DNA from: Dimorphilus gyrociliatus
Lineage: Eukaryota > Animalia > Annelida
DNA length: 63,019 bases
Direction: 5' to 3'
Assembly (NCBI GenBank): GCA_904063045.1
Contig: CAJFCJ010000063.1
Location: forward strand, 1-63,019
The position numbers and the translations under genes are program-made. The notes under the pieces are model-generated. The model did not search any database and was not told the origin of the DNA. It worked only from the letters and a program-made list of their open reading frames with translations. Below are positions 1,670 to 55,468 of the stretch, in pieces; the stretch's first letter is position 1; each line of letters begins with the position of its first letter.

Positions 1670-4600
1670 TGTACAACTTTGGTTATATTTTACATGCTTG
1701 AACTCTATTATTTTATGCAACATATACATGTACATCTTAAAACCTACGCAAGAAAATGCTATAACATTGCCAAACATAAGTCTGATTAGTCAGCTTGAAG
1801 GTTCATCTTTAATTACCAATAAAGGTTTGGCCAAGTTATAATTTAATTAACTGCCTAGGGTGTGGCCAAGTTATATTCAATTAACCTTCCTAAATGTTGA
1901 ACCTTGTAACATCCTGTACTAAAGATAAATATGAACTACACATTTCGGCAACTGTAAAGTGATGATTGGATGTCAGAGACAAACCTCAAAGTATATAAAT
2001 CCTCATTATTCTCATTTGGCATGCAGCTTCCATCTGGACCCAAGGACCTGGAAAATCATCTGGAAACAACCTCCACTGGAACCATCCATCTACTCCTCAA
2101 CATTGGAAGACAGTTTGGTAATTTGGCAACCTGCTATTACAAACTATCTACTCTGCTATTGAACTCTCATATTGTTACTTGCTTAAGTATTATTATTGCG
2201 AATAAACCATTTTAATTTAAACATTTGTTTAAAGGTTCGAGTAGAACCAGTATTGTTATAACTTGCAAACGCATAGATTTTGCCAGCAAGAGCAGTACAA
2301 ATTTGGCGCAGTCGACAGGATATTCTTTTGGTTTATTCAAAAGTTTTGAGAAAGTAAATATGGCAGAAGAAGGAAATGGAAACGCCACTGGGGCAGTTAC
2401 AGACTCTAACCCTTCAACCCCAGCAACTCCAACAATTACAATTCAGCCAGCAGGAATGTCAGAAAGGCAACAAAGACTAATTGAAGACTATGATAGATTG
2501 GTGAGTGAAATGAAAAGAAATCGAATCACAATTCCAACAGATCATGGAGATGGAACACATCACCCAGCACAGAACCCAAATGTTGATATCACAACAGTAA
2601 TTCAAGCATTAAGGGCTGCTTGGGACCGCCCTCAAAGAACTATTCTCAAGTTGTATGATGGAAGCAAGGAGTGTTCAAAATTCAAAGAAGACTTTAATCA
2701 GGCATGTTATGCTTATGGTTGGATAGGAGAAGATGTTGTGAAAGCAAATCTTTTAGATTATTTAACTGGTCCTGCAAAGGATTTGGTGTTGGCTCTGGAT
2801 GGAGAGCCTACTGTGGAGGAAATATGGAAAGCCCTCCATGACGAATTTGATCTAGATCCTTTGGAGTATCAGGAGAAATTGCTTAACTTAAAGCAAATGA
2901 ATGGCGAAAGTGTGGTTCAGTTTGTTAATAGAGCAAAGAAATTGATAAAGAGGTTTTCTCCACCTAGACCAATGGAACCACAATTGCTTGCAACTATGAA
3001 AGAAATAAAACTGATGGAAGTTTTACAAAGAGGATTACAACAGGATATTCTACATTTAGTGTACACCTTACATCCTAAATGTCAAACATTGGCAGAACTA
3101 TATGAGGCTGCTAAGCAAGCAGAAACTTCATTAAAACTAACTCAAAGAAAACCGATCACAATGGTGTCAAAATTGGAAACTCAACAAAGAAAAGAGACCA
3201 AAAAGACCCAGGTAATCAGAAAAGATGCTTCTACAGAAACCCCAAATTTCTGGAATAGAAAGCATGTACCTGACAACAAAAATGCTACTAAAGAAAAGTT
3301 TTCAAGCCAAAAAGTCCAAAAGTATGCACCAACTACAACAAATAGGTATTATAAGAAAAATCAACCAGCAAAGACAATACTGAAAGAGGAACCTAAGCTA
3401 CAAAAATTAGAAACATTAGACAATGAAAGCATGTCAGAAAACGACGAAGTTCAAGATATTCTCTGTTTTTCAGATAGTGACGAATCCACTTGTCAGCTGT
3501 TACAAAGCAAACAATCTGAGCGAAATGCTTCAACATTTATTGGACAATTTGAAACTAATACAGGTTTTAAGTTTGATGCCTTGATAGACTCTGGTAGTGA
3601 CAGATCTTTCATTTCAAAAAAGGTATTAAGACAAGTTCAAGGAAAAGCATCCTTCCCAGAACAAACTGTGAAAAATGCTAGAGATGCTTCAGGAAATAGC
3701 ATCGAGATATGTGGAGAAATCATTCTCAGACTTTATTTTAATGAAAAGATTATTAAACAACGCTTTCTGATCAACAAAATCATTACACAACAATGTATTA
3801 TTGGGTGTGACTTTCTACAACAAAATGGAGCTACCCTTGACTTTGGCAAGAGACAGATTATACTCCAGCCAGGTACAGAAAAGAATTACCCTGTTGGAAC
3901 ACAACACTTATCTTTCAAAGGGTTTTACCCAGTTCCTCTTATTATGAAAAAGAATGAGAGTCAAATACATACCCTTCAGACAACAATTGAACAAGAAAAT
4001 CCCGAGATGAAGAACAAAGTTACCCAAATTCTGGCAAAATATAAAGAAACTATTGCAGAAGACAGATTTGATATTGGCAATCCAGAGGTACCACCCTTGG
4101 AAATAACTCTTGAACCAGGTTCAACACCATATAGACAAAGGCCATATAGAATGCCTCCTCAAAAACAAGAAGAATGTAAGCAACAGATAGCTGAATTGGT
4201 AAAAAGCAAAGTTATTCAACCAAGCAAGAGCAATTGGGCTTCACCAATTGTTTTCGTAAGAAAGAAGGAAGGTAGTCTACGAATGTGTGTAGATTATAGA
4301 AAACTAAACAAAATGACAGTTAAAAACAAGTATCCACTGCCAAATCAAGATGATCTTTTTGACCATTTGGGAGGAGGAAATAAATTCTTTTCTACAATGG
4401 ATTTGACAAGTGCATACCACCACATTAACATCAAGAAAGAAGATAGGTCTAAAACAGCATTTATTACACCTTTTGGCTTGTTTGAATTTATTAAGATGCC
4501 TTTTGGATTAACCAATGCCCCTCCTCATTTTAGTTATGTAATGAATTCATTTGTGCTAAAGGATGTAAAGCATTTGTGCCTAAACTACCTTGATGACATA

Positions 4601-7600
4601 ATAATATTTACCAAGTCGCTGGACCAACATTGGGAAGCATTGGAGACCATTCTTCAACAGATTCAAAAGTACAATTTTAAGATTAAACTAAGTAAATGTG
4701 TGTTTTTGAAAGAACAAGTTCAATTCTTGGGACACATTGTATCAGAAAAGGGGATTGAAACAGATAAGTCCAAGACAGATAAATTATATAATTTACAGCC
4801 ACCAGTGTTTGCAAATTCACTACTAAGCTTTGTTGCATTTTGTGGCTATTACAGAAAATTTATACAAGATTTTGCAAGAGTAGCTAAACCTCTGTATATG
4901 TTAATGAAACTACATGGGAAAAAGGATAAATTGCAATGGACTGAGGAAGCCAAGCAATCATTTTTCAAGTTGAGAGATGCAGTAGTTAACCCTCCTGTAT
5001 TACAACTACCTGATTTTGCTAAAGATTTTCACTTAACAACAGATGCATCGAATGTAGCTGTAGGAGGAGTTCTTGAACAAGTTTATGTAGATGAGAATGG
5101 GAAGAAAACAATGAAACCCATTGCCTACGCTTCAAAACAATTCAACAATAATCAAATGAAATATGCAGCCTATCAAAAGGAAGCATTTGGGGTTTACTGG
5201 GTTGTAAAGAAATTTTTACATTACCTTCAAGACAAGCCATTCTTTTTATATACTGACCATCAGAGTCTAGTACAAACATTTAAGCAAAACAAATTGAATG
5301 TCAGCACAGCAAAATGGGTCATGGCTTTAATGGATTTAAAATTTACAATTAACTATGTGACAGGACGAAAAAATAGAGCAGATGCATTAACAAGATTAGA
5401 AGAATATACACCCCCAAGGAAAGTAACATTTGAAGAGCTAATTCATGGAAAGATCAAAAAGGAGAATTCTCCCTCTATTTCAGTTAAAATGGAACAGTAT
5501 GAACATACACCAGAGTTAACTTTTGTAGCTACCAGTGATAACAGTGAAGAGAAAATTGATTTGTCTTCTGTTGACTTACAGTCAGAGCAAGAAAAAGATG
5601 TGAATTTAAAATCAATTAAAGAATATTTAACATTGGATGGTCAGCTACCTATTCCTTATTTTGGAACTTTTACACCTTTCATAATGGAGATGTTTGTTCA
5701 CAAGGAAATGATCTGGATTATCCTTGAAGAAAGAAACATTCTGGTTTTACCTGACCATTTGATGCTAACTCTGCTCCCTAAATTCCATAAAAATAAAATT
5801 CACAATCACCATGGACCCAGAATGACATTACAAATAATTACAAAGACCTTTTGGCACCCAAAATTAAAGATTATGATTGAGAATTCAATAAAGGATTGCA
5901 CTTTGTGTGAACAAATGAATGGTAGGAGTAGAGTATACCCTTTGGTAGAAACCTTTCACCCTGCATCACCAATGGAGTTGGTAGCCATGGATATAATGGG
6001 ACCCTTACCCATGGTTAAGTCATACAGATTCATACTTGTGATAGTGGATCATTTCAGTAGATACACAGTTTTATATGCACTCAAACAGCAAACCAGTAAA
6101 GAAATTGCAAACCTTCTTTTCAACAGATTTTTTCCCATTTTTGGAATTCCAAAACAAATGTTGACAGATCAAGGAAGAAACTTTGTTGGTAAAGCTTTTA
6201 AAGAGTTTATGAAGGTATTAGGTATTGAGAAAATCCAAACAACAGCTTATAGAAGCCAGAGCAATGGACTAGTTGAACGAAGAAATAGAGAAGTGAGGAA
6301 GGAAATCAATAAATTAGTGGTGGAAGAAAATCAGCATAACTGGGTTGCAAACCTACCCTTGATTCAAGCATTTTTGAATCAATCACCTGTAGGAAGTACA
6401 AGACTACCACCCCAGGAACTTCTTTTTGGCACCAGCACAAGAACACTGATTGATGTAACAATGCATACTACCTCTCCTGAAACAAATGTACTATTTGTAT
6501 TCAATCACCAGCAGCAATTAGTACAGTTAAGAGCTACAGCCTTCTGTAAATCCATCATGGCAAAAGAACAATATAGGGAAAGAAAGAATAGAAATCTCAA
6601 TCTTCCAAAATATTTTGAGGTTGATGATGAAGTATTCTTAAGAAATGATGCTGCAAGAATTGCAATAACAAAAATCCCTTCTTTAAAATGGTTAGGCCCA
6701 TACCGAATAACAAAAGTCAATCATCAAAAGTGGATATATGAAATACAAATGGATGATAATACATGCAAGTTGGTACATGGTAGCAGATTAAGACTAGCCA
6801 ATGAATCTAATAAGTTGGAAACAGGGAAAGAAGCAACAACAATCTTTCACCTTGTGGAGAAGGAAATAACACACCTCCAATATCTTTCTCAGGTAGAAGG
6901 AAGAAATGACTTCCAATTCCGTTTGAAGAATCAAAAAGGCCAAGAAGTCATTGCCTGTGTGACACAGGAGCATTGAGATCCTTTATTACTGAAAAAGAAA
7001 TCAAGTTAATGGATGTTACAATTATGGATAAAGAAACAATTGGCTTACCAATTATAACTTCAGCTGATGGGAAAGCTTTAAAGCAAAAAGGAAGCGTAAA
7101 GCTGAATATCCAATTTGCTGGAGAAAGTATGGAACAAGAATTTATAGTTATGGAAAATCTAGACATAGCAATAATACTTGGTTGTGATTTCCTACAAACT
7201 GTGGGAGCAAACCTCAATTTTGAAGCTAAACAGTGTTCTCTCAAATTTGATAGAAGGAAAGGGAACCTGGCTGAAAGAATAAGGCAACCTCAACTAAACA
7301 AAGTCACTATAGCCATGATGGGACAGCATGACTCTTCATCAGAAAGTTCAGATAGTGATGACTCAGAGATGGAAGTTACTAATTCTGATACTGGTTATGA
7401 CACAAGCAATACTTTCAAAACAGACAGTAATTACAGTCTCAATGAACCTTCAAGCTCATCTGAAAGTGATGACACAGAAACAAATAATGAACTGGATCAA
7501 AATACAGATTCAGAGGCAAACATTATCTCTGATAGAGAAGATGAAATATCTAGTTCAGACGATGAGTCAATAATTATTGAAAGCGAAATTATTGATATAA

Positions 7601-10600
7601 CCCATTCGGATAATGAGTCAATAATTATTGAAGGTGAAATTATTGACATAACCCATTCAGATAATGAGTCCCTCATAGTGGTAGATTCATCCCAAGATGA
7701 GAAAGAAAATACAAGTGACACAGACAATGAGTCAGTCATATTTTTAGATGAGACTAAAATCATCTCTGAACAATTAGATTCCCAACAAGAAGTGGAACCA
7801 CAATATATAGAGTTAGAAGATGGAATAACTATCAGAGTGGAACAACAACACAAAATTTTCAACCATTCAACTATAGCCAACACAGGAAGAGCTAACATGA
7901 AACAGATGTTGTGGCTTCCACTAGTGATGACTGTAATGGTGATCTGTGGCTGCATCCACTCAATAACAGTCCCAAAACCATCCTACCAAGGTGCCCATGT
8001 TACAAGTGCAAACATTACCTTAACATTTAAACCACCGTTATACTTTTGTTCTAACCAACTACCAAGCCAGGCATTTGATCTAGCAGATGAGCCAACTTGT
8101 AATATAGAATCACAAGAAACCAAGACAATTACAGCTGATATCTATGAATTGAACTTGGAAGAAATTGAAACAAGAGCAGTAAAATGTCAAGTGTATCTAA
8201 GAACTAATTTTTACACTTACTATTTCTTTGGAGCAAAGAAGAGGAGGATTGTTAACTCAGTTATCAAAGTAACTCATGATCAATGCAGACAGATGATAAA
8301 AGACAAACGATCTTTTCAAGGAAAACCTTTAATGGTGAAAAGAAACACTTGGATCCACCAAGATCAGTTTCCTGCTGCCTACACATGGCCAACAACGACC
8401 AAGGTGCTGGAATACACCACAATTATCCAGTTTGGCAAAGCATATTGGCAACCTCCTAATATGAAAATTACAACTAATCTGGACTACCTGGAAGATTGTT
8501 TACCAGGGCAGTCCTATTGTGAAACAGAAGAGGCAATTATTGTCTTTAGGAACCTCAAGAATAATTACACACTTGGGCAACAATCACCATGGATAAAAAT
8601 TAGCAACAGAATTAGTTGTATCAAATTTGCTGGTCACTATTCTTGTCCAGGGTATTCTATTCTGGACATCCCTTATCAAGATAAGTTTATTGATGGAATT
8701 GGTGGTCCTGGAACAAAAGTACTAGTACCACTGGAGGAACAGAGTTTAATACAGGAAACAAGCAAGGAACACCTATACAATTTGCTACAATATCAGAAGA
8801 TTGGCAAAAATGAAGAAAAACGACTATTAAACTATCCCAATAAAGTTAAAGAACAAATTATACTATACAAGCGAAACAACCCCTTACCAAGTCTTAACCA
8901 ATGGTACAGAGAAACAAACACAAAGTATAAACTAATGAGAAATAAAGGCACACTCAAGGAAGTTGTGATATATCATCTACAACAACCCATTAGTCCATCT
9001 TACTGGGAGCTGGATAACTATTATATCCAAGAAATGCTGCAAGCAGTCAATTGGACAAGGGCAACAAGACAATCTGTCACGATTTCAAAATATGTATACA
9101 GTGAGAAAAGAATCAAAAAGAAGGTATTACCAACATTGGGCATATGGTATAAAGGACCACCAGCCAGAGAATTCAAGATTACCTATGAAGGAATTTATTT
9201 TACTCTACACATGAGAATGGCTAAAAAGCAGATGAAGAAGGAAGCAAAACTGAAACATAAGATAAGTAAAAACCCATACCACAAATTCCCATTGGAAATG
9301 AGAGAAGCTGCCCAAACATCTACCTTACTACATGGTATTGATTCAAATTTTAAGAATTTAAAAAAGTTTACCCAACAGCTGTCAAGTCTTCTCTGCAATC
9401 AATTTGTTCAAAGAAGCAGAATGATGGCATTACTAGCAAATTTGGATCCTCAATTGACCACAGTGTTAACAAATGAGTTGGGAATGCACAGTAGTCAGAT
9501 GGGAGAATTAGCTATAATTAAACAATGTTCACCAATAGCCTCAACAGAAGTAGTTTGTGACTTAAGCATGATAAAAAAGAATAACAAATGTTCTCAATTT
9601 TTACTTGTCACCATGAACAACCTGCTTTTCCAAGTAGAACCAGTTACTCATGTTTTACAGCAAGTCAATCCTGAAGAGATTACCTATAATGAGTGTAAGT
9701 CTAACAAGTTATTCTACAAAACAACTCACAACCCATTAAATCCTATAAGAAACCAACCAATGAAAGACAAAACGTATGTGTATTATTCAGAAAGAGGATG
9801 CAGATTTCACACTGTGTCTGCAAAATCCATGCAGTTACATATCCACAATCACCTTTCTGAACCAAAAATTGAAATTGCCAGATTAGCTGATCTACTCCAC
9901 CATGGGGTAAAGAAGGATATTGCATACCAGCACTCAAAAATTAAGCAAGTTATCAGTTCACTGGAACAGAAGCAGGCAAGGTATGATAACATGGTCACTG
10001 TTGCAGAGAAAAATGGCATTGTACCCAATTTATCTGGAATTAAAAAGTTTTTCCATAGTTGGTACTATAAACCTGGGAAAACACTTTATGTTATCATACG
10101 AAATATTTGTTTGAGTATTGTAGTGTCAATGGTATGTATCATCATTTTCAACTATATTATTGGAAGAAGAAAACAAAGAGAAGAAATTGCTACCCCAAGT
10201 GAGAGCACAGATAACTCTCCTGAAAACCCAAAACTAATGAAACAAAGTTGTAGCTTTAGTCAACATCAAACTAATGAAGAAGAACAACCACCTGTAATTC
10301 TCATTAAATCAAGATGAAGGGACTCATCTTCACAAAGAAGGGGGAAGTTGTACAACTTTGGTTATATTTTACATGCTTGAACTCTATTATTTTATGCAAC
10401 ATATACATGTACATCTTAAAACCTACGCAAGAAAATGCTATAACATTGGCCAAACATAAGTCTGATTAGTCAGCTTGAAGGTTCATCTTTAATTACCAAT
10501 AAAGGTTTGGCCAAGTTATAATTTAATTAACTTGCCTAGGGTGTGGCCAAGTTATAATTCAATTAACCTTCCTAAATGTTGAACCTTGTAACATCCTGTT

Positions 10601-13600
10601 ACTAAAGATAAATATGAACTACACATTTCGGCAACTGTAAAGTGATGATTGGATGTCAGAGACAAACCTCAAAGTATATAAATCCTCATTATTCTCATTT
10701 GGCATGCAGCTTCCATCTGGACCCAAGGACCTGGGAAAATCATCTGGAAACAACCTCCACTGGAACCTTCCATCTACTCCTCAACATTGGAAGACAGTTT
10801 GGTAATTTGGCAACCTGCTATTACAAACTATCTACTCTGCTATTGAACTCTCATATTGTTACTTGCTTAAGTATTATTATTGCGAATAAACCATTTTAAT
10901 TTAAACATTTGTTTAAAGGTTCGAGTAGAACCAGTATTGTTATAACTTGCAAACGCATAGATTTTGCCAGCAAGAGCAGTACAGTAGGAGTGAATAATTT
11001 GAAAATTTATGTAAAATATCCTTTAATACATTAGTTAATCCTTCTGAATCTTCATGATAAATATATCTGTAGCTGTTCACCCATTTCCAGAAATTGGTAA
11101 TATAATCTTCGTATTTTTTATGATATTCTAAAATCTGTGTTGATTTTTTAAGCTCTTCCAAAATATTAAACTCTATATGTTCAGCCAACAACTCTACAGT
11201 ATCTTCTTCTACTATTCCTGTCTCTATAAGTTTAGAAACCAACCCAGTATTAAGGATATTCTTGTTTACAACGTTCCGTTTCATATTTTGAAACAGGAGA
11301 GGGTATTCTGTTGCTATTATCAAATCATCAGAATCAAAAACATTTAATACATTCTCTTCATTTAAAAACAGAGGCAATCCCTGTGGATCATTTTCCATCT
11401 CAAAGTCAAACTTTTCAGGAATAAATTCAATAAATTTTAGGAACCGTTCTAAATTCCTAAATGGTGTCTTGTTGATATGACGAGGAACTTTGCCAATGCA
11501 ATGATATTTAGATAATAAAAATTTGACAGTTTCCATTGGATTTACATCATAAATATTCATATCACCTTTTTTAAATATTTGTTTTAACTGTGAAGGTACT
11601 TGTGTTACTTTCATACCAATATCTTTTAATATATCAACAATATCATTTGAATATAGGCTTTTAAAATATAAAAGATATTTATCATTATGTTCGTTGTAAG
11701 ACAACCATTCAATTGATGAATTTGAAGATTTAAAAGCAAATATTTTACTCTGTCTTAAATTATTCATTAGGCCTTTGCATAAACCATTTAATAAAGGATT
11801 TTTCTCTCTTAATAATGGGAAAAAGTTATAAAAATCATAGAAAGTCAACTCTCTCTTCACAACTAACATTTGTAGTTGTTCAATAATTCTAGCATAACAA
11901 TAGCCTATTAGTTCAGTGAAAATGTACAAATTCCATTTCTCTTCAATTGCAATATCTTCTGTGTTATCTGAATCAAAATTTTGTCGAATACCTCTTCGAT
12001 TTTCGTGATCTAAATAAAAACGTCCATTTATATGAATAGGCATATAACTTTCAATTGGTAAAGGTAGATGACAGAATATCTTTTTCTTTATTTCAATTCC
12101 TTTTTCCAATTTGATTGGAAGAGCAACACCAGCTTCAGGATTATACTTTTTATCATTAAAATCATTTGGTAAATTATCCTTTTCTCTAAATCCATATGAA
12201 CGATAAATTAACCATTTTTGATCTTCTTCTAAATCATTTATATTGAGATAATAACATAAAGAAATTGGGTTGTAATGATGCTTATTATACATTTCTTGAG
12301 TGAAACTAGTTTGCTGGTAATTCTCACTAAACATTTCCTTTGAAGTTGATATACAAGATAATATCTTGTATGAATTATGAGTTTTCTTTTTAAATTCAAT
12401 CTTTTGAATACTATTCAAGAAAAAGAAACATTCTTTTGCGGTTTTACAAAAGTGCTCTTTTAACATTTCTTCTGCTTTGTCAAAGAGCAATGGTTTATCA
12501 GATAGTTTTGACTTTGTAGCCATACTACTATCTCTTAGTGGAAACCTGAATAAGACTCCATTTTTTAGATCAAATCCTTTGGGTATTGTCTGTAAAACAT
12601 CTGAATATAATTTCATACTTTCTAAAGGTATCATTCGGCCTGGCTTAAAAAAATTTTCAGAGTTTGGAAAGTATGAACGATGAGGATCAAATACGCAAAA
12701 AACTAGACCTTTTTTCTCATGATTAGCAACAATTATAGGTACATCAGTTAAATGATATACACAATTAAAACCAACACCAAATTCTCCAACTTTAGTCACA
12801 TCTGCTTTTTTACTTCCTTCACCTAACTTTTGAATTCCTTTGAAATCTTCATTCTGAAATTTTCCATTGTTATAAACCAGTAATGCTGGACACTTTTGTA
12901 AAGGTTTCCAAGAATCTCCAAATATTTTCTCATCTCCATATTCATTATCATCAAGAATAAATTGAATTTCAGTAGCACCAGCATCATCAGCATTCTGAAT
13001 AATCTCCTTAATAATTGTTCCATCATTTGGATAGGCTCGAAGAAGAGTTTTAATACGACAGATTAAATCCTCTGATTGACCAAATTCTTCTCCAATTCCA
13101 ATAGATTTTGCTTGAATGTACTTATCCTGATTATTTTGAATTCCTAGCCTCATAGCTAGATCAATACTAATTTTCTCATGGCAAATATTTAGGTCACTTT
13201 TATCAATCCAATCAACATTGCAAAAACATAAATCTCTATGGCTCAACCAAACATTTTTTGTATTAGGAATGAACAGATGATTGTTATTATCCTTTAGATA
13301 GAGTTGTAACATTTCATGACAATCCATTAAGTGATAAAGGATTAAAACTGTCATATTAACTTCATTATCACAATTTGAGGTACTATTCTCATCAGTTTTC
13401 TCCTTGATTTTACTTAGAATTTGAATGAAATCATCAAATGTAGGTACTCTTTTTACATGGAGAATATCTAAGAAATCAGTAGTAAAGACGTCTTCCACAC
13501 ATCTAAACATAAATGGTTCAAGCCTAGTAGTAATATTGGCCTGGTAGCATATTGAATGATCTGTTTCAAATTTATAACTGTCCATACTGTGAACAAGAAG

Positions 13601-16600
13601 TGGGAAAGCTGTTGGATTAAAGTCTCTCCAACTCAAAAAAGTAATAATCTTTTTGTATACTAGCTTTACTTGTTCAGAAAAATTATATTTTGAAGAATCT
13701 TGACATTATCCAACACTTCTTCAGTAGTTGGCTCTTTAATATTGAAAACTTTCCATATGATTGATAATGATTTCCTTAAGTTATTAACAGATGGTTTTAC
13801 AAAGGCTACCAATCGAAAATCACATTTTCTAGTTGCCTTAGGAGAATATAAATAAGTGACACCATCATCATGCCAGTCTAATATCCAATTTTCTGGTTTT
13901 ACTTTTATTGGTATGAATGAAATATTGCTTAGATTTTCAAGTTGTTCATCCAACATATTTGTCCCCGAGGCAGTCATTTCTTCAATAACTGAACATATCA
14001 AATGTCCTCTATCAATAAAGTTCTTATCTTTTCTATGCTTTTCAAGTACCTTGCACCTTTCAATAATCTGTTGTACAGTCAATTGAGAAGATATCATCCC
14101 AATGGAAGAAAGTTCATTTTTCAAACTCTCAATATCTTCTTTGTTCCATTCACAAAATCGATTCTCTTCAAAATCGAAGAGAGATGATAATTTAGAATTT
14201 TCAAAAACAACTTCTCCAGGTAATTTTAAAACGCCATTTGGTTTTGTTCTAATACACTTTGCTTGTTTCAATATATGATTTATCTTTGAATGGAAAAGTT
14301 TAAGTCCATTTCTAATGATTAAATCAAAATGTTGGCAATTAATCGAATCGCTCCTCGCAACAATATTTGAATAAAATGTTTCAGTATCAATTATTCTTTT
14401 CCTAAAAAAATCTTTCTCGCATTCTTCAATAGTATTTCGTAAATTTGAAGGTATTTTAGGAAATGGCAATTGAAAAAGATCAAATGCAATAGAATGTATA
14501 TCAATATTTTCAAATTGTTCCATTTTATAAAGTTCCTCGCTTAAGAATAGTATATTGTTTGACTCAAACCATTTCATCTGATACATAAACCAATGATTAG
14601 AAGATTTAATCATTTCTCTATAAAAATTTTTTATGAGCTTTTCAATGAATTGATCAGTAGAACTATTTAATGTTGGGAATAGACTGTACCAGTAACATTC
14701 ATCATTCCCAATGATTGTTCTCAGTGCAAAAAAGGTATCTATAAGAGCTGATGTAATTACTCTTTCAAAGAGTAAACTGTTCCATTCGTGTTCAAGTAAA
14801 TGTTTATCTCCTTTACTATCTCTAATAATGTTTCTTCGGTCATGAGATACTGCAAATGACCCATTCAAATGAAAAGGAAGATGCGAAGAAATTGGAAGTG
14901 GAAGGAAACAAAATAAAGAATTATTGCGCGAAATATTCTTTGTTAAACTCATTGCAACTCCTCCAATAGCTATATTTCCTCTTTTCTCCAATTCTTGTAA
15001 CATATTTGTAATTTTTACTTGTCCAATAAGCCAAAGATACGATTGATTGATCTCGGAGCCATCATTCAAATATTGAAAAGCTGAACCCACCTTCTTATCT
15101 ATTTTTATAATAACAACTGTCTGTGATTCATTGGGATCAAATAGGATACTTGTATGTTGTATTACTTTTATATATTCTTCCTGTTCCTTTAAACATTTTG
15201 GTATATTTTCAATTTGAAGAGATTTGGCATCAAGTGCATCGTGAAGTGTTTTTTTCACACTAATAATTTCCTTTTGGTCTCCTGAAGAATTTATATGAAA
15301 CATTTGAAATTCGCATATACATTGAGTAAATATGAGAAGATCACTGGATAATTCAAGTACAATGTTTATTAATTCTTTTATATCTTCGGAATTGTAGGAG
15401 TTTTTAGAAATTAAAGATTTAAAAGCTTGTTCGTCACTCCTCAATTGAAGCTTGTATAGCGTTCCATCAAACCTAGATTCAGATGGTACTTTACAATTAA
15501 ATATTCCTTCGAAAGGTGACAATAATCTCTTTAATGGTTTTAATTTGGATTCATTCAATTTTATTCGATAACCTCCTCTTTGTTGCTTTGAAAGGCTTCC
15601 AGAGTATTGAGCATGGGGATCAAATCTAACGTAGCTGTTACCCGATATAAATGATGGTGTTTCTGTGTAATGATATACAGAATTAAATCCAATACCAAAT
15701 TTTCCAATTGTTGACTTTTTTAACTCTTTATGACCAGAATTAATAGATTTTATTGCATCAAAATCACTTTCACTGAATAATCCATCATTGTAGACCCAAA
15801 TGGATGGACCAATGAAATATTTACTTTCGTCTTCAACCGATGAAGATCTTTCATCCAACAGAATTTTGACTGTTGTTGCTCTAGCATCATCAGCATTTTG
15901 TATAAGCTCTTTAATTGGACCAATTCCATCTTTGTATTCTGAAATCAATTGTTTCAATCTACGACATAAATTTTCAGATTGAGTCCAATCTTCAAATTCC
16001 AATAACGATTCATTAATGGTCCGAATATCCAGGATTTTTATTGTATCCTGGCTAAGTGTTAGTTGATTATGAATTATATAACTGAATCTATTCTCATCAA
16101 ATTCAATGATATAGCAATCGTCATCTTTTCCAGTAAATCGTGAAGCAGCTGCTTGGGTACACATGCTCAGTGGTTTCATAGAAAAGGTAGATGAATTTGT
16201 TCTTTCTACTGGAATCATTATATTCTTTAATTCATGAGAATTAGCATCTTGAATAGAGTTCAAAATATCTGAACATATGCTAATACCATTTTTACAGGTT
16301 GAAGGAGGGTTTACACTAATTTCCAACAGCACCTAATTTAAGGTTGTACAAAAAAAATTTTAGACACATATTAATATGTAAAAGATGTGGAAACTTACAT
16401 TTATACAATCCATGTCTTCTTTGGCTCCACATTTTGAATAGAACTCTTTAAATTCTATAAAGTTATTAGGAAGATAGAATCTATAAGGTTCTATTTGAAT
16501 ATTTCTATTATTAAGAATGATTTTTGAAGGATGAACAAACTCTTTTCCTGTCCAGGCACATTGTTGATTTTTGAATTCGGACACCCAATCTTCATACAAA

Positions 16601-19600
16601 TTGATTTGATTATAAAGCATTTTAATTATTCTTTCAGCTTTTTCCATATCTTTACCACTTACTCGATGTATTTGTGACTGAATATTCCAAAATTGGTTTT
16701 TTACAATACCCTTTGACAATGTGGAATCACATTTTAACAAATGATACAGTTTGTTAGGAATAACTGGTTGTACACCTCCAACCAACAATGACAGATTGTC
16801 ACTAAAAACGGAATGTCGATCGTATAAACATTTCTTTTTACCAAACCAATCAATCCCATTTGGATACACTTTAAGATGACTTTCAATATTGCTTATCCAC
16901 TTCAATTCTGATTGAATTGTTATATTCTTTTCAATGATGTAATTTTGAAGAATTCTACTTAAAGCAAAGTCATTATTTCTAATAACATATTCAAAAAATT
17001 TAATCAAAATTTCTTCACTTAGAGTTGACTTTAAACCAATTTTACATAGATCATTTTCAAATTTACTTAAACTGGGATGTAAAAAATATTTGGATAATGT
17101 CATTTCCTCTCTCAGTTTATAAGGAAATGATTTATCAAAGCTGTACAGTTCATCTAATAATTTACATGTAGAATTTGCTGCTGGAAATACTCTACTGTTT
17201 CTTAAAATAGTTCCTCAATAAATTAATATGATAATTTTGAAGAGTGTATTGTATAATTTGAACAATTTCCATTGTTCCATATTTGCCAGGAATGCTGGGA
17301 AGTACCTTATTGAAAAGTAGGTCATCTATGGTTGTCTCTTCAAGCCCAAAAACATATTTAAGTCTTTCAACTTGATTACATTTTTTAATTATGTTCCCTT
17401 TGTAGGGAAAGGGGATCGAATTTATAAATTGTTCTGTTATTGTAGATGAAACATGTGACCTACTAGAGCATAAGGGAAAAATTTTTAGTTCTTTCCAATG
17501 AGTTTGAACCTTTGCAGATAATCTTTCAATACTTTTAACATTTAAATGAAGATAGTTTAATAAATCCATTGCAGTTGGATATTCCATTTGATCAAATAAA
17601 TTTGATAAATGCTGACCAGTGTTTAAAAAATCACTGGAGAATAGATTTTGAAATAATTCTTCACAAACATTATTGAATATTATATGCTTGTTATTTGATT
17701 CTCTTATGGTTAAAAAAGGTGCAGATACCTTTGAAACATTTCTAACCAAAATCATACCAAATGTTTGTAAAATCTTTTTTTCGTCTTTCTTTTTTACTTG
17801 TTTGTCAAAAATTGCTGGAAGATTTTTCACTGGGAAGCTCTTATAATCTTTTCCATTTGTTGTTAGTCTTAACAGAGGCAGATGATCAAATTTTCCTGCA
17901 ATGATACTAGCATTTTCATTTAATATATAGTTGATGAATATTTTAAGCCAATCAGAATTTTGAAAGTTTTCTTTAAGAGTCACTTTCTCTACATGTGATA
18001 GAAAGGTAGACAGTTCCATTACCGTTAGTTGAAACATCTGTTTTAAGGCCATTTTTTCAATTAGTCCTTTACATTTATCTGTTAAAGAATTTCTGGCAAT
18101 AAAATCAATTCCCATGCCATTCAATATTACATTCAAGTTGTTTGATGGATAATAGATGTCACTACAATAACAACTACTGTCAAATGTCCTGAAAGATATC
18201 TTACATTCTGGATGTTCTATGGGAATAAGTTCCATATTTGAGACATCTAAATTTGATTCTAACAGATATTCAAGAATTCCAAGCTTTGTTTCAGTTGAAA
18301 TAATAGTTTTCCAAGATTTCTTTTCCTGTAAGTAAAGAATTACATTTCTTATTTCAACTTCATGTTCGAAACAATCTGTAAAAAAAGTTTGCAATATCTG
18401 TAGAGTTTCTCTTTTAAGAACAACAAAATTTATATTTGACACTTTCAGAATTTCAATTTTGAATTTAGCGTAGTGGCCATCAACAATAAATTTAGTATCT
18501 TTTGGTTGTGTTTTTTTCAATGATCCCGATACGAATTCACAATCAAGCAGCACAGAGCTTATTTCATTTGAACATATTGACCAGAAAGGGTCATTCAAAG
18601 ATTTCGGTGGAAAGAATTTAACAATTTCATCGACTGATTTAAATTTTGATAAAGAAATAAATAATTGATTGTAAACATTTGGTAATAGATTTTTAAGTAT
18701 TAAAATATTCCACTGGGAATCATCATCATTCATTGTCTTTGAGAATTGTAGACCAGATCTACTATCGTTTAAAGCGAAATAACCATGAATATGAATAGGA
18801 AATTTTACATTTATACTAAATGGAAGAAAGGTGAATAATGATCCTTTATCTAAAAGTGAATTATCAAGAGGAGCAGCTAAACCCATACAAGGCTGATAGT
18901 GAAGTTTTTCTGATAGTGTTTTAATTTCACAATTATCAAAATTTTGTTGAATTACAACTAGATATTTCTCAATTTTCATTTTTTCTCCATTTCGAATGAT
19001 GAAACATGGATCATAGCATATTTGAAATGATTTGGAATTTTCCAGGCCTTCTCTATAAATTGATCTTTGCTCTTCAATATTTTCAGATAACTCAATTTCT
19101 ATACTACTAAGTAGTTCTGATCCAGAATCTGAAAGTTGATACAGCTTGATGGATTGAAGATGTTTAAGAAACAATAAATTATTGGATCCATCTTTGATAA
19201 ACTGATCAAATAAATCATAAACATCTGAATCACAAAGAACTTGATTGCATACTTCAGATGGTTGATTTCTTAATGGTAAACGAAACATTGTAAAAGGATA
19301 ATTTTGATCATATTTAATATCATAATCAGCTACTAATTTGGTAGCTTCCTCCAACTCCCTCCTCTTTTCAGGACATTTGGAAAGCATTTCTTGAAGATTA
19401 TAATGATGAATTTCATTGTCAAAATGCTGGCATAAAGGATCAAGATATACAACATCTTCTCCGCTTATAATTTGTATACAGTCTGCAGATTATATATATC
19501 AATACTTTATATAAAGAGAGATTAAAAATGAGTCAAACCTGTTAAATGAAAAAGTGATTTCATTCCTAAACCAAATCTACCAACTTTATAAGCTTTTTTA

Positions 19601-24190: not shown

Positions 24191-24683
24191 TGGATTAGGA
24201 CTTGGGGTTAGGGATTAGCACAATCAGAAGAGCCTGGCAATCCCAAAATTTCACACACACTTGTAACCAAGATTTGGCTAAGGGTTTGTGTAGCTATTGA
24301 GGAGTTGCTATCTTGAGCAGAAGTTCCCCAGCCTAAGCTGTTACTGTATCTCCAACAAAAACACAATCACAAATTCTCAACAAGGGCAAAGAGAACCTGT
24401 GCTGCAATAAATAACAATGTCACCAATTAAAATCACTCACAATATTTTGGGACTAATTGTCCCTTTATCAAGTGAGACTGAAAGGCCACAGTCTAATCGC
24501 CACCAGAGTGATTAGGGTTAGGGTTAGGGTTTGCAAAAGGTTTTTTTTGACTAAATCAAAAAAGAGAAACAGGATTCTCACACTTCAAGAGTCCCAATTG
24601 AATTTGGGAAGCAGTCAAAGAAAAAATACACCAAAATCGACATTTAAAACAATTTCCCAGAGAAAAATTGTTTCAAAAAATTT

Positions 24684-24880
24684 TGTACTTTGTTGTATTG
24701 TAATAGCAGGAATGTCTGCTTCTTTTGAACAGTATTTGTCCTTTCCAATCATTTATCAACTTACCAAAGTACTCACACCACATAGAGCCTTTCAAGTTCG
24801 TCCACAAATAGTCTTAACAAATGTAATTTAGGTAGAAATAATTCAACGAAACACCAGTATTTCGGCCAAAGAATATATAT
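24684..24880 (-). repeat. Diverged element-B-family LTR fragment (R/U5 end)
   Basis: Starts TGTACTTTGTTGTATTGTAAT like 44982 and aligns to 44982-45180 (CCTTTCCAATCATTTA, AAGTTCGTCCACAAATAGTC, ACACCAGTATTTCG). Confidence 0.85.
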
Positions 24881-25150
24881 TCTATCAGTAGTCAGTCTGT
24901 ATTGGTGTATTGTCATTCCTAGTTGTTTTTTGGCATAACAAGGAAAGAGAAAGAGAAAGATTCAAATTAATCTGTAACTGAAAATATATTCTAAGACATG
25001 TTAATTTTTTGAAATATATTTAATCAATCAGATAAATTACATTCAAAATGAATACATTTCTTGTTAATTCTTGAGATATAAATTTTTCAGGAATCAATCT
25101 ACATTGTATTATCTAAATGAATTCTATAAAATACTACTATGAATTAAGGA

Positions 25151-29989: not shown

Positions 29990-30205
29990 TACCTTGGGAA
30001 AACCTTAAAGTATTTAAACACTCACTGTTCTGGCCCAAGTGGTGGCATCTCAATTTAATTATTGAAAAAAGATCACGTGGAAACAACCACAGATAAAGTA
30101 ACCCTTCTACACTCTTCTGTTGAATTCTAATTTGGTTATTAGGCAACCTTCTATTATGAATTATCTACTGTGGTTTGATACCATTTCTTGCTTAAGTATT
30201 TTATT
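29990..30205 (+). repeat. Diverged element-A-family LTR fragment
   Basis: AAACCTTAAAGTATTTAAA, TGGAAACAACC, TTTGGT.ATT.GGCAACCT.CTATTA, CTTGCTTAAGTATT are colinear with 1981-2192. Confidence 0.7.
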
Positions 30206-30436
30206 TAAAAAAAAGCCATATAGATTAAACACTTTGTTCAAAGTAAAGGTAGTACTTTCAAGAACATAAATTATTCAAAGAAAACTGGTATAAATTGAAT
30301 ATAGTTGTTATTTATTACTCTAAGATTGATATTTAGTATTAAAATAAATATCATTAAAAAGATTATTAAGAAGACTACAACATGGCCTGTACAATTTGTA
30401 ACAAAGAAGTTGTCATGTAATGCCATGATGATAGGA

Positions 30437-31915: not shown

Positions 31916-32289
31916 ATAAGTTGCATAAAAAATAGAGTTCAAGCATGTAAAATATAATGAAAGTTGTACACTAGTATTTGGAGGGTTACCTTCCAATTGC
32001 CATGGGGATGTCATGGAAAACATTTGCAAAATTTTGCTTTTACCCTAATCCTAATCTAGACCTAGGGTTTGTCTAACCATTTTCAATAGCCATAACTCTC
32101 AGATAGTATTCTCTTAACTAAATCAAAGCAATTGCTTAATTACTTTTCCTAACCTAATCCCAATGCAAAATCTCACCCCAAAAATACACCAAACTGGCGT
32201 TTTTAACAGCCCCTGTAAAACTATATCTAGATATTTACTAATTTATCAAATTCAAGTAAGAGGGACAAAATGGAATTACTCCTGAAAGA

Positions 32290-32600
32290 TCTTTTGCATT
32301 CATGAAAGGCCTAGTTACTTGTAAAAATTAGTGTCACCAATTTTTGTGAATGTAGGATAAGTTTGTAATGTTATATCTTCTGGTTCAGCTGTTGGAGCAG
32401 AAGGTAATTCCTTTTTATCAATTGTTTAGATAACTTGGTGAATTGAACTTTTGTCCAGTTTTTTCTTCCAAAAAAAATAAATAAAATTTCCATTTCCAAT
32501 CACAAATGTTATTAGCAAAAGTAAAGATTTCTTGTCAATGATAATTATGATTGTGTTATTGACAAAGCAGCATCATCGCTTAAATCGTTTGCAAAGTAAA
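32290..32600 (-). pseudogene. env: Decayed 3' end of an element-B-like env
   Basis: Colinear with 45945-46270; encodes LPSAPTAEPE versus LPSAPTAESE in element B. Confidence 0.75.
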
Positions 32601-32710
32601 TGAGCTCCAAAAAAATCCTTTGAAAAGGACCTGAGCTGGAAGAAGCCCTAAAGACTAATTTAATTTTTGAATCCATCATTTAGCTAAGCAGATCAGTAAA
32701 TCACAAATAA

Positions 32711-37959: not shown

Positions 37960-38170
37960 TGTTAATTAGGTATTAGAGGGCAAGCCTCAAAAGTATTTAA
38001 ACCATAATTGTATCTCATCTTATCATCTGAGAAGATTGTCTGAAAACAACTTTAGCCTTCTACTCTTCAGAATTGGATGTTAAATTTTGGCATAATTTGA
38101 CAACCTTCTACTACAAACTATCTACTCTTCCTTTCAACTTTTATATTGCTGATTTCAATTAAATATTTGT
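37960..38170 (+). repeat. Diverged element-A-family LTR fragment
   Basis: CCTCAAAAGTATTTAAA, CTGAAAACAAC, TCTACTCTTCA..ATTGGA, ATAATTTGACAACC, TACAAACTATCTACTCT are colinear with 1985-2190. Confidence 0.75.
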
Positions 38171-44030: not shown

Positions 44031-44981
44031 TTATCCAAATCTATTCTGTATTGTGTTTGTATTTCCAAAGTTTTTTTTGGCGGTAATCCTTTTAAAAAGA
44101 TTAGTGTAAAATTTCTTGATTTTTAATCTAATAGATGATTTCGTATAACCATGAAGAAGGGCATTTATTGTTGAATTTGAAACAATAATTACTGTAAATA
44201 CTTCTGTAATAATTTGAAATTCGTATCTGGAGAAGATTTTTCTCTCTTCCACTGCATTGTACTTAGTAATTGTTAATGTAGCTGGTAAAGCCCATAATAA
44301 ACAATTGATTATTAATAAGCATGCTAAAATTCGGATGCTACTCCCTTCAGATTTTATATTATTAGCGTTCGATACATCAGAAATTGCTTTTCTCTGTTTT
44401 CTTATCGCTCTTAATATAGGAATATACAATAAGAAACTGGTAAAAGCATTAGGTAAAACAGTAGAGAATGACCAAAAAAACATGTACGTAAAAGGAAAAA
44501 CATTGTGAGTTTCACATTGAAAAGTTATATTATGCTGCAAAATATATTCATATCTATTCCAGCCAATTGCAGTTGGAAGTAGACAAATGGTAAAATTGAT
44601 TAACCATATGCAAGAAAGCAATATAAAAGCTTTCTTAATTGTCCAAATTTTGTAAAATGATAAAGGTTTTACAACAGCCAAAAACTTTTCAAATGTAATT
44701 AGAGTTAATGTAAATGATGATACTGCAACTATCATAAAAATAATTTCATATGCTAAAAGACATTTATAATAGCTTAGGTCTTTACTATGAAATAGAATAA
44801 AAATGAATATACTTATTGAATATAAAATATCTGTAAAGGTTAGTGCTGTAACACCAAAATTATGTAATTTCCATAAATCTTTATTAATAATATGAATAAT
44901 GATTAAATTAAAATTTAAAATTAAACCTGCAAATTGGTTGCAGCTTGATATAACTGTTAAATAAATGTTGTCGAACACCAT
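44031..44981 (-). CDS. Rhodopsin-family GPCR, probably N-terminally truncated, abutting the element B 3' LTR
   Basis: Seven hydrophobic segments; LTFTD (TM2), ITFEKFLAVVKPL (DRY position), IGWN, Cys in ECL2, NSTINALLHG (NPxxY position). Confidence 0.85.
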   Translation of the reverse strand: MVFDNIYLTVISSCNQFAGLILNFNLIIIHIINKDLWKLHNFGVTALTFTDILYSISIFIFILFHSKDLSYYKCLLAYEIIFMIVAVSSFTLTLITFEKFLAVVKPLSFYKIWTIKKAFILLSCIWLINFTICLLPTAIGWNRYEYILQHNITFQCETHNVFPFTYMFFWSFSTVLPNAFTSFLLYIPILRAIRKQRKAISDVSNANNIKSEGSSIRILACLLIINCLLWALPATLTITKYNAVEERKIFSRYEFQIITEVFTVIIVSNSTINALLHGYTKSSIRLKIKKFYTNLFKRITAKKNFGNTNTIQNRFG

Positions 44982-45916
44982 TGTACTTTGTTGTATTGTA
45001 ATTGTAGGAATTTCTGGTTCGTCACAACTGTAATCGTCCTTTCCAATCATTTACCAACTTGCCAAAGTACTGGTCCAAATAGAACCTTTAAAGTTCGTCC
45101 ACAAATAGTCTAACAAAGGCAATTTCGGTAGAAATTGATTAACAAAACACCAGTATTTCGTCCAAAGAATATGTATTGAGTAAAATGAGCTTCTAGTTCT
45201 AAACAAGCTAGTTTAAACAACTAGCTGACGGTTAGAAAACTGAACTATCAACTGTTAATTTCGTAGGGTTTATATACTCTTTTAAGGGTTGATAGTTCAC
45301 AAATTTCAATGTTCACAAAAACAAAAGTAACATTTGAAGACAAAGAAAAGTTCTAAATATGGTCATGTTTTTATTGTTTTCCTCTTCTAAATAATAGTTG
45401 AATTTCGAAGGTTGGAGAGTTGCATAAGATGTAACAATTTTAGTAGGACAAGTCCAACAATCAAGAAAACATGTAGATTGTATATTTGACCATTTTTATA
45501 TTCTACCTTAATAATGATATTCAATTGATTGAGTTAGTAAATTTAGCATCAGCATATAAGGAGGAAGTATATCTGATTAATGCATGTTAAAAAGAACAGT
45601 ATTGTGTATACAATACTGTTGAATAGTGAATATAATCTAACCTTAGAATTTAAGCATAATTGATAATTAATTGAACTAGTTTTAGTTCGAAATCATAAAT
45701 TTATGGATTAATAAATTGTAATATTAATGCTAGGTTGCAAATAGCAAATATTCTTTATATAATTCAATAGGTTTTATTACTGCATAATGTGTATGCACTG
45801 CCCTATGCGAAACTAGGTCACTACTGCTTATCTTTATCAGTGCTATCTGCATAGTACAATACTGGTTCAATACTACTTCTCTATTGTAGAATATAGCTGA
45901 CGAATGTATGTGTACA
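44982..45916 (-). repeat. Element B 3' LTR (935 bp)
   Basis: Matches 55472-56406 with two substitutions found by eye; TATATAAA on the minus strand near 45270-45277. Confidence 0.97.
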
Positions 45917-45920
45917 AACA

Positions 45921-45932
45921 TCCCACTCCTTT
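45921..45932 (-). promoter_or_regulatory. Element B polypurine tract
   Basis: AAAGGAGTGGGA on the minus strand, overlapping the env stop, 4 nt before the 3' LTR. Confidence 0.75.
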
Positions 45933-48360: not shown

Positions 48361-48383
48361 TCCACCATTTGTTTGGTGTTTCC

Positions 48384-53100: not shown

Positions 53101-54337
53101 CTTCTCTGTTCTTGTCAAGATTATTTTTGGACACATGTAAATAATTGTCAATTTCTAGTGTATTTGAATTAATATTGTGTACATTTTGATTAGACAAATG
53201 TTCAAATTCAATACTTTCCAACTGTAATTCTTCTATTTCAGGAGTAACTGGATTTTTCTTTTGTTCTTTTTGCACTTTGATAGTTATTCCATCTTCTAAT
53301 TCTATGTATTGTGGTTTCATTTCCATTTCCATAGCCAAGTCTTCAGTTTCTTCTTCAGAGGAATTTATGAGAATAACTGAGTCATTGTCAGACTTAGGTA
53401 TATTTCCAGTCTCTTCATCAGATGAGTCTATAACCATTATGGAATCATTGTCAGACTCAATTGTGTTACTGGTCTCTTCTTCAGATGAGTCTATAACAAT
53501 CATTGAATCATTATCAGGCTCAGTTATGTTATCAAGCTCTTCCTCAGATGAGTCTATAACAATCATTGAACCATGATCAGAATCAGTTGAATCACTAATT
53601 TCATCTTCAGATGAGCTTGTACCATTGATTATATCCAAATCTGAGTCTGGGCTGTGATCTGATTCAATACTTGTTTCTGTATCATAATTTTCAGAAGTAC
53701 TGGAACTTTCATCTGTGCCATAATTGCTATTTGAATCAAAACCATTGAATCCCTCATAAACTATGCTTGAACCATGAGTGTTGCTTGTATCATAGCCAGT
53801 ATCTGGATCAGTAACTTCCATTTCTGAGTCCACACTATCTGAAACTTCAGATGGAGTATCAAAAACTTCAGATGGAGTGTCAGAATCTTCAAAATACTGT
53901 CCCATCATTCCAACAGTTACTTTTTTTACACTGCCTTGTTTTCCAAATTTTGTTTGGTGATTTTCGTTATATTGCAAAAACTTTCTAACTGGTTGTCCTT
54001 TTCTGATAAAGAATGGAAGAGAAACTTGTTTTGTTGCAAAATCAATAAGAGCTCCAGCATTTTCTAAGAAATCACAACCAAGTATTATAGCCATATCTAG
54101 TTTTTCCATAATAAAGAATTCTTGTTCCATAATTCTTCCATTAAATTGAATATTCAGTTTTGTTTTTCCTTTTGTCTTTAAAGCATTTCCCTCTGCTGAA
54201 GTGATGATTGGTAAGCCAGTAGTTTCTTTCTTGATGAATTTAGAATCCATTAACCTGATTTCTTTTTCTGTAATAAATGACAAAAGTGCTCCTGAATCAC
54301 ATAAAGCAATAACCTCTCTTCCATTATGATTTTTCAT
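50200..54337 (-). CDS. pol: Element B Pol (PR, acidic spacer, RT, RNase H, integrase)
   Basis: LCDSGAL..AIILGCDFL; D/E/S-rich tract; YMDD; LTTDASN; DIMGP, TDQG, GMVERKN; KWSGPY. The last codons of the listed ORF are MULE TIR sequence. Confidence 0.93.
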
Positions 54338-55468
54338 TCAAAATTGGAAATCTTTTCTGCCTTTTACCAAAGAAGTACACTTAAAATGTGCGATTTTCTC
54401 TTCTTTGAGATTAAATATTGCCATTCTTCCTTTAGAAATTTCAGTTTCATTAGGTTCATCAGGTCCAACATGTATTAGTCTGTTAAAGCTGCCTTTTTCA
54501 TTATTTCCTGCATTTCCATTTCTTTGTTGTTGAAATCTATTTTGAGAAAAAGGTTTAAATGTATGTTCATTTTGATTTGAGTTACTCTGATTGTTGTCAA
54601 ATCTCCTTTTGTACTGTTTGAATTCATTTTCGCTTTCTTTTCTTGCATTATCAAAAAATATTTCTGCTCTTTTTGCCAATTTAATATACTGATTAACTGA
54701 GTTAATCTTTCCATCTTTTTCCACATGATTAACAATTTTTCCTTTAAGACCATTCCTGAATACAGTTAACAGTTGAAGTTCTCTAACTCTTTCAGTAACA
54801 CAAGCCATTTCAGTAGTATTGAATGGTAGGAATTTTTCCACAAGTTCTTTACTTCTTCTAACAAAACTTTGGACAGTTTCATCATTGAACTGTCTCAATC
54901 TATCAATTTCTTTTTTGTAAGCCATAGGATCTGGATTAAATTCTTCATCCAATGCATCCCAAATTTCATTTTCATTTGCCATGGAGGGTAAACTTTCAAT
55001 AACATCTCTGGCTCTTCCAGTAGTGTATTTTCTCAGCATTCGAACTCTTTTCTCTTCTGTATCCCAAAGGTTTAATTCACAAGCTGTTTGAAAGTTCCTC
55101 TTAAAGGCCCAAGTATCTTTGCTACCAGAATAGGGTCTCAGCAAAGTAGTATTAGGTTTCTCATTAGCATCAATTAGAAGACTTGCAATTGTCTTTTCCA
55201 AAGCATTATCTTGAATGCCATCATAACTGAATTTTGGTTGAGTAGGATCAGGATTAACCATACCTTCAGGAATTGTAGCTGCCCCAGTCATCAAATGGTA
55301 CTTTAAAAAGCTATTACCATCAACTTTGGCTCCACTACTTTTAATTCTCAACATTAATTCATTAATTTTTGAAAGATACTCATCTACTTCCTTGGCTCTG
55401 GCTTTGTCATTCTCATAAACCAAAATAACATTCATTGAAGTAGCATTGTGGGCTGTCGACTGCGCCAT
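54338..55468 (-). CDS. gag: Element B Gag (no CCHC knuckle), separated from pol only by an in-frame TGA
   Basis: PYSGSKDTWAFKRNF..W..LRKYTTGRARDVI..L+EEF.P..L.Q..DETVQSFV, a Gag capsid-like pattern also seen in element A. Confidence 0.88.
   Translation of the reverse strand: MAQSTAHNATSMNVILVYENDKARAKEVDEYLSKINELMLRIKSSGAKVDGNSFLKYHLMTGAATIPEGMVNPDPTQPKFSYDGIQDNALEKTIASLLIDANEKPNTTLLRPYSGSKDTWAFKRNFQTACELNLWDTEEKRVRMLRKYTTGRARDVIESLPSMANENEIWDALDEEFNPDPMAYKKEIDRLRQFNDETVQSFVRRSKELVEKFLPFNTTEMACVTERVRELQLLTVFRNGLKGKIVNHVEKDGKINSVNQYIKLAKRAEIFFDNARKESENEFKQYKRRFDNNQSNSNQNEHTFKPFSQNRFQQQRNGNAGNNEKGSFNRLIHVGPDEPNETEISKGRMAIFNLKEEKIAHFKCTSLVKGRKDFQF
55453..55467 (-). promoter_or_regulatory. Element B primer-binding site (tRNA-Ser type)
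   Basis: TGGCGCAGTCGACAG, identical over 15 nt to the element A PBS, starting 5 nt inside the 5' LTR. Confidence 0.85.

Follow-up and report, generated by a model that had tools for sequence, protein, structure and literature searches.

In the present study, we analyzed a 63,019-nt stretch of the genome of the annelid Dimorphilus gyrociliatus (contig CAJFCJ010000063.1 of assembly GCA_904063045.1, positions 1 to 63,019; hereafter, the window), which contains two gypsy-type long terminal repeat (LTR) elements, A on the plus strand and B on the minus strand. Both elements encode, downstream of a retropepsin, an acidic spacer with repeated units built around four-residue hydrophobic cores. There is moderate evidence that these cores are under selection for their hydrophobic class, the units being few and related, and SUMO has, on the basis of the core sequences, a slightly better than even chance of being the partner that they bind. 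The second protease and spacer of A are likely a capture that is younger than the split between the pol regions of A and B.

Hydrophobic cores in the acidic spacers

The spacer of A (7315..7830, plus strand; 172 aa) consists of 30% D/E and 27% S/T with four K/R residues and 23 S/T-x-x-D/E sites, and is likely disordered, as judged from this composition; a predicted structure of the preceding retropepsin (protease 2) together with the spacer had a predicted local distance difference test (pLDDT) score of 36 throughout, including the protease, and was not used. No RING, DNA-binding domain, nuclear localization signal (NLS), or basic cluster was found in the spacer, and Cys is absent from the spacers of A and B. 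The spacer of B (53282..53908, minus strand; 209 aa), which is located between the B protease and reverse transcriptase (RT), is homologous to that of A. By Tandem Repeats Finder, A has a 51-bp repeat (7554-7670, 89% matches over 2.3 copies), and B has one of 63 bp (53349-53615, minus strand, 4.2 copies). The tandem repeat in a D/E/S-rich tract that was described in a first-pass annotation of this DNA is real, and the stretches SLIVVDSSQDE, SVIFLDET, and YIELED that it listed are all present in the translation; the repeated unit, which it gave as twice the same, reads SIIIEGEIIDITHSDNE in the second copy.

The units of the two spacers are in register. A has two 17-aa units, A1 (7558..7608) and A2 (7609..7659), each of which contains SIIIE and IIDIT, and two 21-aa units, A3 (7660..7722), which is of the B type, and A4 (7723..7785; all on the plus strand); B has four 21-aa units (53327..53578, minus strand). 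The cores are spaced 17-21 aa apart, and the motif common to the 21-aa units is D-[NH]-[DEG]-S-hhhh-D-S-S-[DEQ]-[DE]-E, with another copy, VILVNSSEEE, in protein P0027. The first-pass annotation had made its proposal hinge on the conservation of the cores across family members: conservation was found for S-hhhh-D-S-S-E, which is kept in the four B units and P0027, where every change replaces one hydrophobic residue by another, and not for IIDIT, which is confined to A1 and A2. The strictest conservation in the spacer is that of PQYIELEDGITI (7798..7833, plus strand), in which 12/12 residues are identical in A, B, and P0027; it belongs to no class of SUMO-interacting motif (SIM) and contains a Y-x-x-L pattern that resembles an LC3-interacting region (LIR).

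SIM classes (SIMa, SIMb, and SIMr) were used as defined in the available text of PMC3395311, SIMb, the type of PIAS and RNF4, being [PILVM][ILVM]DLT. SIMa fits A3 (LIVVDSS, 7672-7692), B1 and B2 (both MIVIDSS), and B3 (IMVIDSS), namely, four of the eight units and four of the six 21-aa units. A1, A2, A4, and B4 do not match SIMa, with A4 (VIFLDET, 7735-7755) and B4 (VILINSS) being near-misses, and IIDIT in A1 and A2 is a near-miss of SIMb, with I for L, that is absent from B. Five matches were counted in the 381 aa of the two spacers vs two in the 10,518 aa of 19 other frames of the window. The spacer of B alone holds four (P=0.0003), three of which are copies of one unit; when SIMb was relaxed post hoc to accept I for L, three matches were obtained in A (P=0.004), two of which represent one duplicated unit. 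The (V/I) consensus that the first-pass annotation applied covers three of its seven stretches (IIDI twice and VIFL) and leaves out SIIIE (twice), LIVV, and YIEL. The array of A alone is not clearly beyond chance, and the non-chance signal comes from the comparison with B and from the codon pattern described below.

Selection on the cores and their candidate partner

Among the six 21-aa units (A3, A4, and B1-B4), the minimum numbers of changes at codon positions 1/2/3 were 6/0/7 in the cores and 14/11/10 in the linker (Fisher P=0.023), and pairwise differences were 0.48/0.00/0.55 vs 0.59/0.49/0.49, while the flanks differed chiefly at the third position (0.25/0.11/0.51). The core residues are L, V, M, I, and F; an aliphatic or Phe class is kept in 6/6 units, and I or V fills 17/24 core positions. 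When neutral evolution was simulated, every core remained hydrophobic in 0.1-8% of runs with six independent tips and in 3-28% with three tips, and the observed third-position divergence was at or past the low-probability end of the simulated range. Residues that vary within a constant class are the pattern expected of a strand-forming motif, and cores of constant hydrophobic class, four of six in a SIMa context, make SUMO binding plausible. A SIM pairs as a strand with β2 of SUMO, and chain binding by RNF4 depends on the spacing of its motifs (PMC3901395); I/V-rich cores are as expected for such pairing. SIMs are cited as binding SUMO in the 1-100 micromolar range. The SIM of PML is phospho-regulated (PMC8430037).

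A hydrophobic strand may also serve another partner. The cores may have been selected as β-strand motifs for the adjacent protease (as a pseudo-substrate or in the timing of processing), for RT or integrase, or for a different host protein, with the likeness to SIMs being convergent. Selection for hydrophobicity names no partner, the spacer accompanies its protease in A and B, and the best conserved piece, the 12-residue tail, is outside the SIM classes. We regard this explanation as rather unlikely, considering that the flanks of the units match SIMa and that the aromatic residue of LIR-type motifs is absent from the cores, except for F in A4. Retropepsins disfavor β-branched P1 residues, and the I/V-rich cores thus fit poorly with a role as their substrate.

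Several observations weigh against SUMO as the partner. The single published-class match in A, LIVVDSS, is not significant in composition-preserving shuffles (P=0.30), shuffling a single unit yields a chance match to a SIM class in 2-14% of cases, two of the six 21-aa units (A4 and B4) are one flanking residue short of SIMa, and IIDIT is not conserved, its place in B being taken by LDNIT, TSNTI, or TGNIP. Codon positions 1 and 2 compared alone gave P=0.066, and since the core window was picked after inspection and the units are duplicates of one another, the constraint on the cores is moderate evidence only. Four of the five listed differences between the contigs of sequencing run X5 and the A spacer are residue-changing, and one of them replaces an I of the first SIII with T (in pol, 3/11 classed among the listed differences). 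A third subfamily (X1 record 1, X4 record 9) has 92 letters vs 269 in B over the repeats (53329-53599) and is approximately 177 bases shorter across them, with an additional 54-base skip; A's own protease-RT linker is without a comparable spacer, and these two findings suggest that the array may be dispensable. No spacer relative was found outside D. gyrociliatus in protein, viral, or metagenome contig searches. A and B are also situated in or at genes, vs the gene-free islands described for the family to which we assign them below.

Some of these points would suit a loosely constrained acidic linker that was amplified by slippage and whose copy in A hitch-hiked with the protease or the env junction. 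The number and length of units vary, and the ratio of nonsynonymous to synonymous divergence (dN/dS) between A and B is 0.57 in the repeat half (units 3-4 and the tail); the chance rate for single units and the residue-changing X5 differences point the same way. However, the second position is unchanged throughout the 24 core codons, in contrast to the freely changing codons of the linker, dN/dS is 0.18 in the N half, and the tail is identical at all 12 residues, and so we consider a linker of this kind to be unlikely.

Spacer relatives were absent at E<=0.001 among 4540 candidate proteins of 624-1987 aa and numbered one (P0007) among 7990 scored proteins of 164-611 aa. A PDB sequence search with the repeats gave four matches at chance level, the ESM Atlas had no usable match, and a search for RNA holders listed none. 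SUMO-like frames were encountered on other contigs: one (Pfam Rad60-SLD) is on a 912-kb viral contig, and two contigs classified as bacterial carry SUMO of eukaryote type, which likely reflects contamination (frames L001:391-696 (-), L008:400-663 (-), and L006). The SUMO of L008 is distant and kinetoplastid-like, and that of the host was not found.

Origin of the second protease and spacer

Protease 2 of A (6949..7245, plus strand; DTG intact; RVP_2, E 3.6e-6, above cut-off) and the spacer belong to a B-type cassette of gag end, protease 2, and acidic spacer (6795..7853, plus strand; left edge uncertain, 6730-6795), and A 6724-7853 aligns to B 54545-53259 at the nucleotide level. The protease and spacer block occupies the gap between protease and RT in B and that between integrase and env in A. 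Protease 2 is 68% identical to the B protease and 29% identical to protease 1 of A. In a tree of 18 rows, to which 13 other protease matches were added and in which most other forks were unresolved, protease 2 grouped with the B protease, P0007, and P0033 at 99/99, with protease 1 outside. The proportion of synonymous differences (pS) between A and B is 0.75-0.85 (saturated) in gag, RT, RNase H, and integrase, 0.83 in a 28-codon piece of the gag end, and 0.66 in env, vs 0.41 in protease 2 and 0.43-0.60 in the spacer; the protease-RT linker is 97 aa in A and 352 aa in B. Taken together, the pS contrast, the protease tree, and the linker lengths indicate that A likely captured a B-type protease and spacer after the pol split. 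The spacer-env junction of A is contained in the contigs of X1, X4, and X5. The ancestral site of the cassette was likely between protease and RT, which the first-pass annotation overlooked. The donor may be a subfamily other than B, and the comparison of A with B is therefore silent on selection after the capture. An internal duplication of protease 1 as the source of protease 2 was rejected on the basis of the identities and the protease tree. The contigs of X6 contain almost none of A's words; the differences are chiefly C>T and G>A and resemble those of a base-converted library, and so X6 is no evidence of the absence of A.

The sequence KVTIAMMGQ (7300..7326, plus strand), a putative protease site at the N terminus of the spacer, resembles retroviral protease sites, and in A, B, and P0007 alike, the protease is followed by K[VI]T[VI][AG]MM. 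The release of the spacer by cleavage at KVTIAM/MGQ is plausible from this pattern.

ORF1 and ORF2 of A overlap at 6910..6976 (plus strand), with a frame break near 6955. The break was absent, at full depth, from the contigs of 4/4 sequencing runs from two studies, although contigs merge copies and lose rare variants, and the best-matching ones may derive from the window's own sample. Since the 3' stretch of ORF1 is homologous to the end of the B gag (BLASTP) and the contigs are free of the break, the family likely encodes Gag-protease 1-RT-RNase H-integrase-protease 2-spacer-Env in a single frame. As for the break, it is likely either peculiar to this copy of A or an error of assembly. A programmed frameshift at 6910-6976 was rejected because other copies are without the break and because B and P0033 align across it.

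Structure and setting of the elements

Element A is bounded by a 5' LTR with TG...CA ends (1670..2299) and a 3' LTR (10349..10983; both plus strand), which are 99% identical, with one mismatch and five gap letters, and is flanked at either end by the 4-bp target duplication GTAG, which indicates a young insertion. A primer-binding-site-like sequence (2304..2321, plus strand) has the same start as in element B, ARAGORN found no tRNA within the window, and a polypurine tract is present at 10336..10348 (plus strand). ORF1 (2216..6976, plus strand) encodes Gag, protease 1 (DSG), RT, RNase H, and integrase, as assigned by Pfam and BLASTP; the end of Gag includes an acidic patch, LDNESMSENDEVQDILCFSDSDES (3386-3480), containing a SIMa near-miss. 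The LTR pair with its target duplication, the primer-binding site, the polypurine tract, and the Pfam domain order of protease, RT, RNase H, and integrase are those of Ty3/gypsy elements, with an additional protease after integrase in A.

ORF2 starts with the retropepsin, and its last part comprises a stretch resembling a signal peptide, the ectodomain, and a transmembrane helix. The env of A (7897..10317, plus strand; recognized by hydropathy and Foldseek, with the signal-peptide-like hydrophobic stretch at 7906-7971 and the transmembrane helix at 10081-10167, both plus strand) is 36% identical to that of B. A model of this env (pLDDT 57) gave only herpesviral glycoprotein B (gB) among the Foldseek matches listed, at E 1e-10 to 8e-8 and a low TM of 0.12-0.18, with E ~1e-10 and TM ~0.16 for the top matches. 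A PDB sequence search with env had no matches, and no env relatives were confirmed among 240 viral and 595 metagenome contig pattern matches. P0005, P0006, P0008, P0009, P0023, P0030, and P0031 are distant env relatives, and the gB-like env family extends beyond A and B.

In the Dimorphilus genome paper, the dominant gypsy family with a gB-like env was named Dingle (10.1101/2020.05.07.078311; PMC7854359), and on this basis, A and B are filed there, A best as a young Dingle (Dinophilidae Gypsy-like) LTR element of Dimorphilus. Dingle and A have in common the Ty3/gypsy pol order, a gB-like env 3' of integrase, and LTRs with a target duplication. The acidic spacer, SIMs, and second protease are not mentioned for Dingle in the available text, although Extended Data Figure 3d may show them. 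The nearest labeled proteins to A and B are D. gyrociliatus gene models; among ten relatives, three are labeled with a species, in each case D. gyrociliatus, in keeping with the dinophilid host of Dingle, and P0024 and P0027 include stretches that are nearly identical to A and B.

Element B (44982-56406, minus strand) has LTRs that are 99.8% identical and flanks without a common 4-bp duplication (CCAT vs GTTA). It borders on the ATG of a G protein-coupled receptor frame of the rhodopsin family (44034-44984), and the stop in its gag-protease region was not found in the X1 and X5 contigs. A 1.8-kb insertion between its integrase and env (48390-50192), with inverted arrays of 16-bp units at both ends, is likely a non-autonomous DNA transposon. 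Element A is antisense within a sacsin-like gene (flanks 279-1205 and 10940-19489, minus strand); Pfam SACS was matched in three of the four flanking frames scanned, and as the host frame reaches the 3' LTR, the insertion likely interrupts an exon. Contigs of X5 omit 6989-7048 (60 nt) and 10602-10667 (66 nt), which have GT...AG on the minus strand, and these skipped stretches suggest that antisense RNA of the A family is likely spliced. Env-end and LTR remnants related to A and B are present at 32278-32607, 24682-24881, 30131-30243, 38056-38148, and 31916-31973, and one frame (61342-62541, minus strand) contains two TIR_2 domains.

Discussion

Regarding the function of the spacer, we tentatively favor a role in docking, as a possibility drawn by analogy, in which a multivalent SIMa-type array brings the incoming element to SUMO-rich nuclear sites. 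The protease and spacer would have moved to A by template switching between co-packaged subfamilies, and the spacer module would be cut from the polyprotein at KVTIAM/MGQ and, in a disordered form, packaged with Gag-Pol. The SIMa-type cores would then bind host SUMO with avidity from multiple units, which may be strengthened by CK2 phosphorylation of the unit serines, and the incoming complex would dock in cis, early after entry. This role would be similar to that of the SIMs of HIV integrase, which are needed for nuclear localization and integration (PMC10144533), rather than to that of a ubiquitin ligase. A SUMO-targeted ubiquitin ligase was rejected because no RING family of Pfam was detected in five element frames at E<=0.1 and the spacer has no Cys.

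Alternatively, the released spacer may function in trans: as a decoy for SUMO, it would prevent silencing complexes from assembling on the element through SIMs. Silencing guided by PIWI-interacting RNA (piRNA) in the fly involves SUMO-SIM contacts (10.1101/2021.07.27.453956; on this silencing, see also 10.1101/533091), and an expressed fragment of Sov with flanking SIMs interferes with silencing, although the deletion of the Sov SIM alone barely changed it (10.1101/2021.07.27.453956). SUMO2 and TRIM28 have been reported to silence endogenous retroviruses, ORF61 of varicella-zoster virus (VZV) requires three SIMs for the disruption of PML bodies, and A re-acquired the cassette despite having its own protease. 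On the other hand, the viral SIM-array antagonists ICP0 and ORF61 have a RING, neither a RING nor an NLS or DNA-binding part is present in the spacer, and the main text of the Dimorphilus genome paper never mentions piwi, piRNA, or SUMO. A decoy therefore appears to be improbable, and the anti-silencing role proposed in the first-pass annotation found no direct support. A stronger version, in which Dingle carries a free-standing poly-SUMO reader that its subfamilies exchange as a cassette with a dedicated protease and delivers it in the virion to blunt SUMO-dependent silencing, is similarly doubtful; if true, it would represent a counter-defense of an animal LTR element against the SUMO step of heterochromatin assembly.

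Silencing of the piRNA type and that of the TRIM28 type have SUMO as a common step, which large DNA viruses target with SIM arrays; if the unit peptides bind SUMO, the array considered here will be a small and cheaply testable example in which host SUMO is read by a retroelement. Independent of SUMO, A combines two proteases of unrelated lineages in one gypsy element, of which the second lies after integrase and before a gB-like env, an arrangement for which no precedent was found in the available text of open papers and preprints, including that on Dingle. The mobility of the protease and spacer shows a route by which accessory modules may pass between gypsy subfamilies.

The Dingle family has already been described and viral SIM arrays exist; the available text of open papers and preprints gave neither a dedicated SIM array in an LTR retrotransposon nor a repeated SIM-like module in a gypsy polyprotein. 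Among known systems, the PML-type SIMa and the tandem SIMs of RNF4 are similar in having an aliphatic core followed by D/S/E and serines in a CK2 context, with the motifs 17-21 aa apart in the present case. The spacers of A and B differ from RNF4 in being without a RING, and IIDIT of A departs from SIMb (xxDLT). The spacer between protease and RT in B has the position of J, the spacer between protease and RT in Ty3, for which we know of no SIM array. ICP0 of HSV-1 (herpes simplex virus 1), ORF61 of VZV, and K-Rta of KSHV (Kaposi's sarcoma-associated herpesvirus) also have multiple virus-encoded SIM-like sequences that engage host SUMO (see also PMC3161977, PMC3174244, and PMC3749962); however, these are separate regulatory proteins, with a RING in ICP0 and ORF61, whereas the sequences described herein are repeated in tandem within the polyprotein of a gypsy element. 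VANC of the VANDAL transposons resembles the proposed anti-silencing role as a transposon-encoded factor, but VANC proteins come from DNA transposons of plants and bind DNA in a sequence-specific manner. HIV-1 integrase, in which SIMs in a pol product serve nuclear localization and integration, carries them inside a folded enzyme, whereas the SIM-like cores of A and B are in a repeat module of their own, apparently disordered, which was likely transferred from one subfamily to another.

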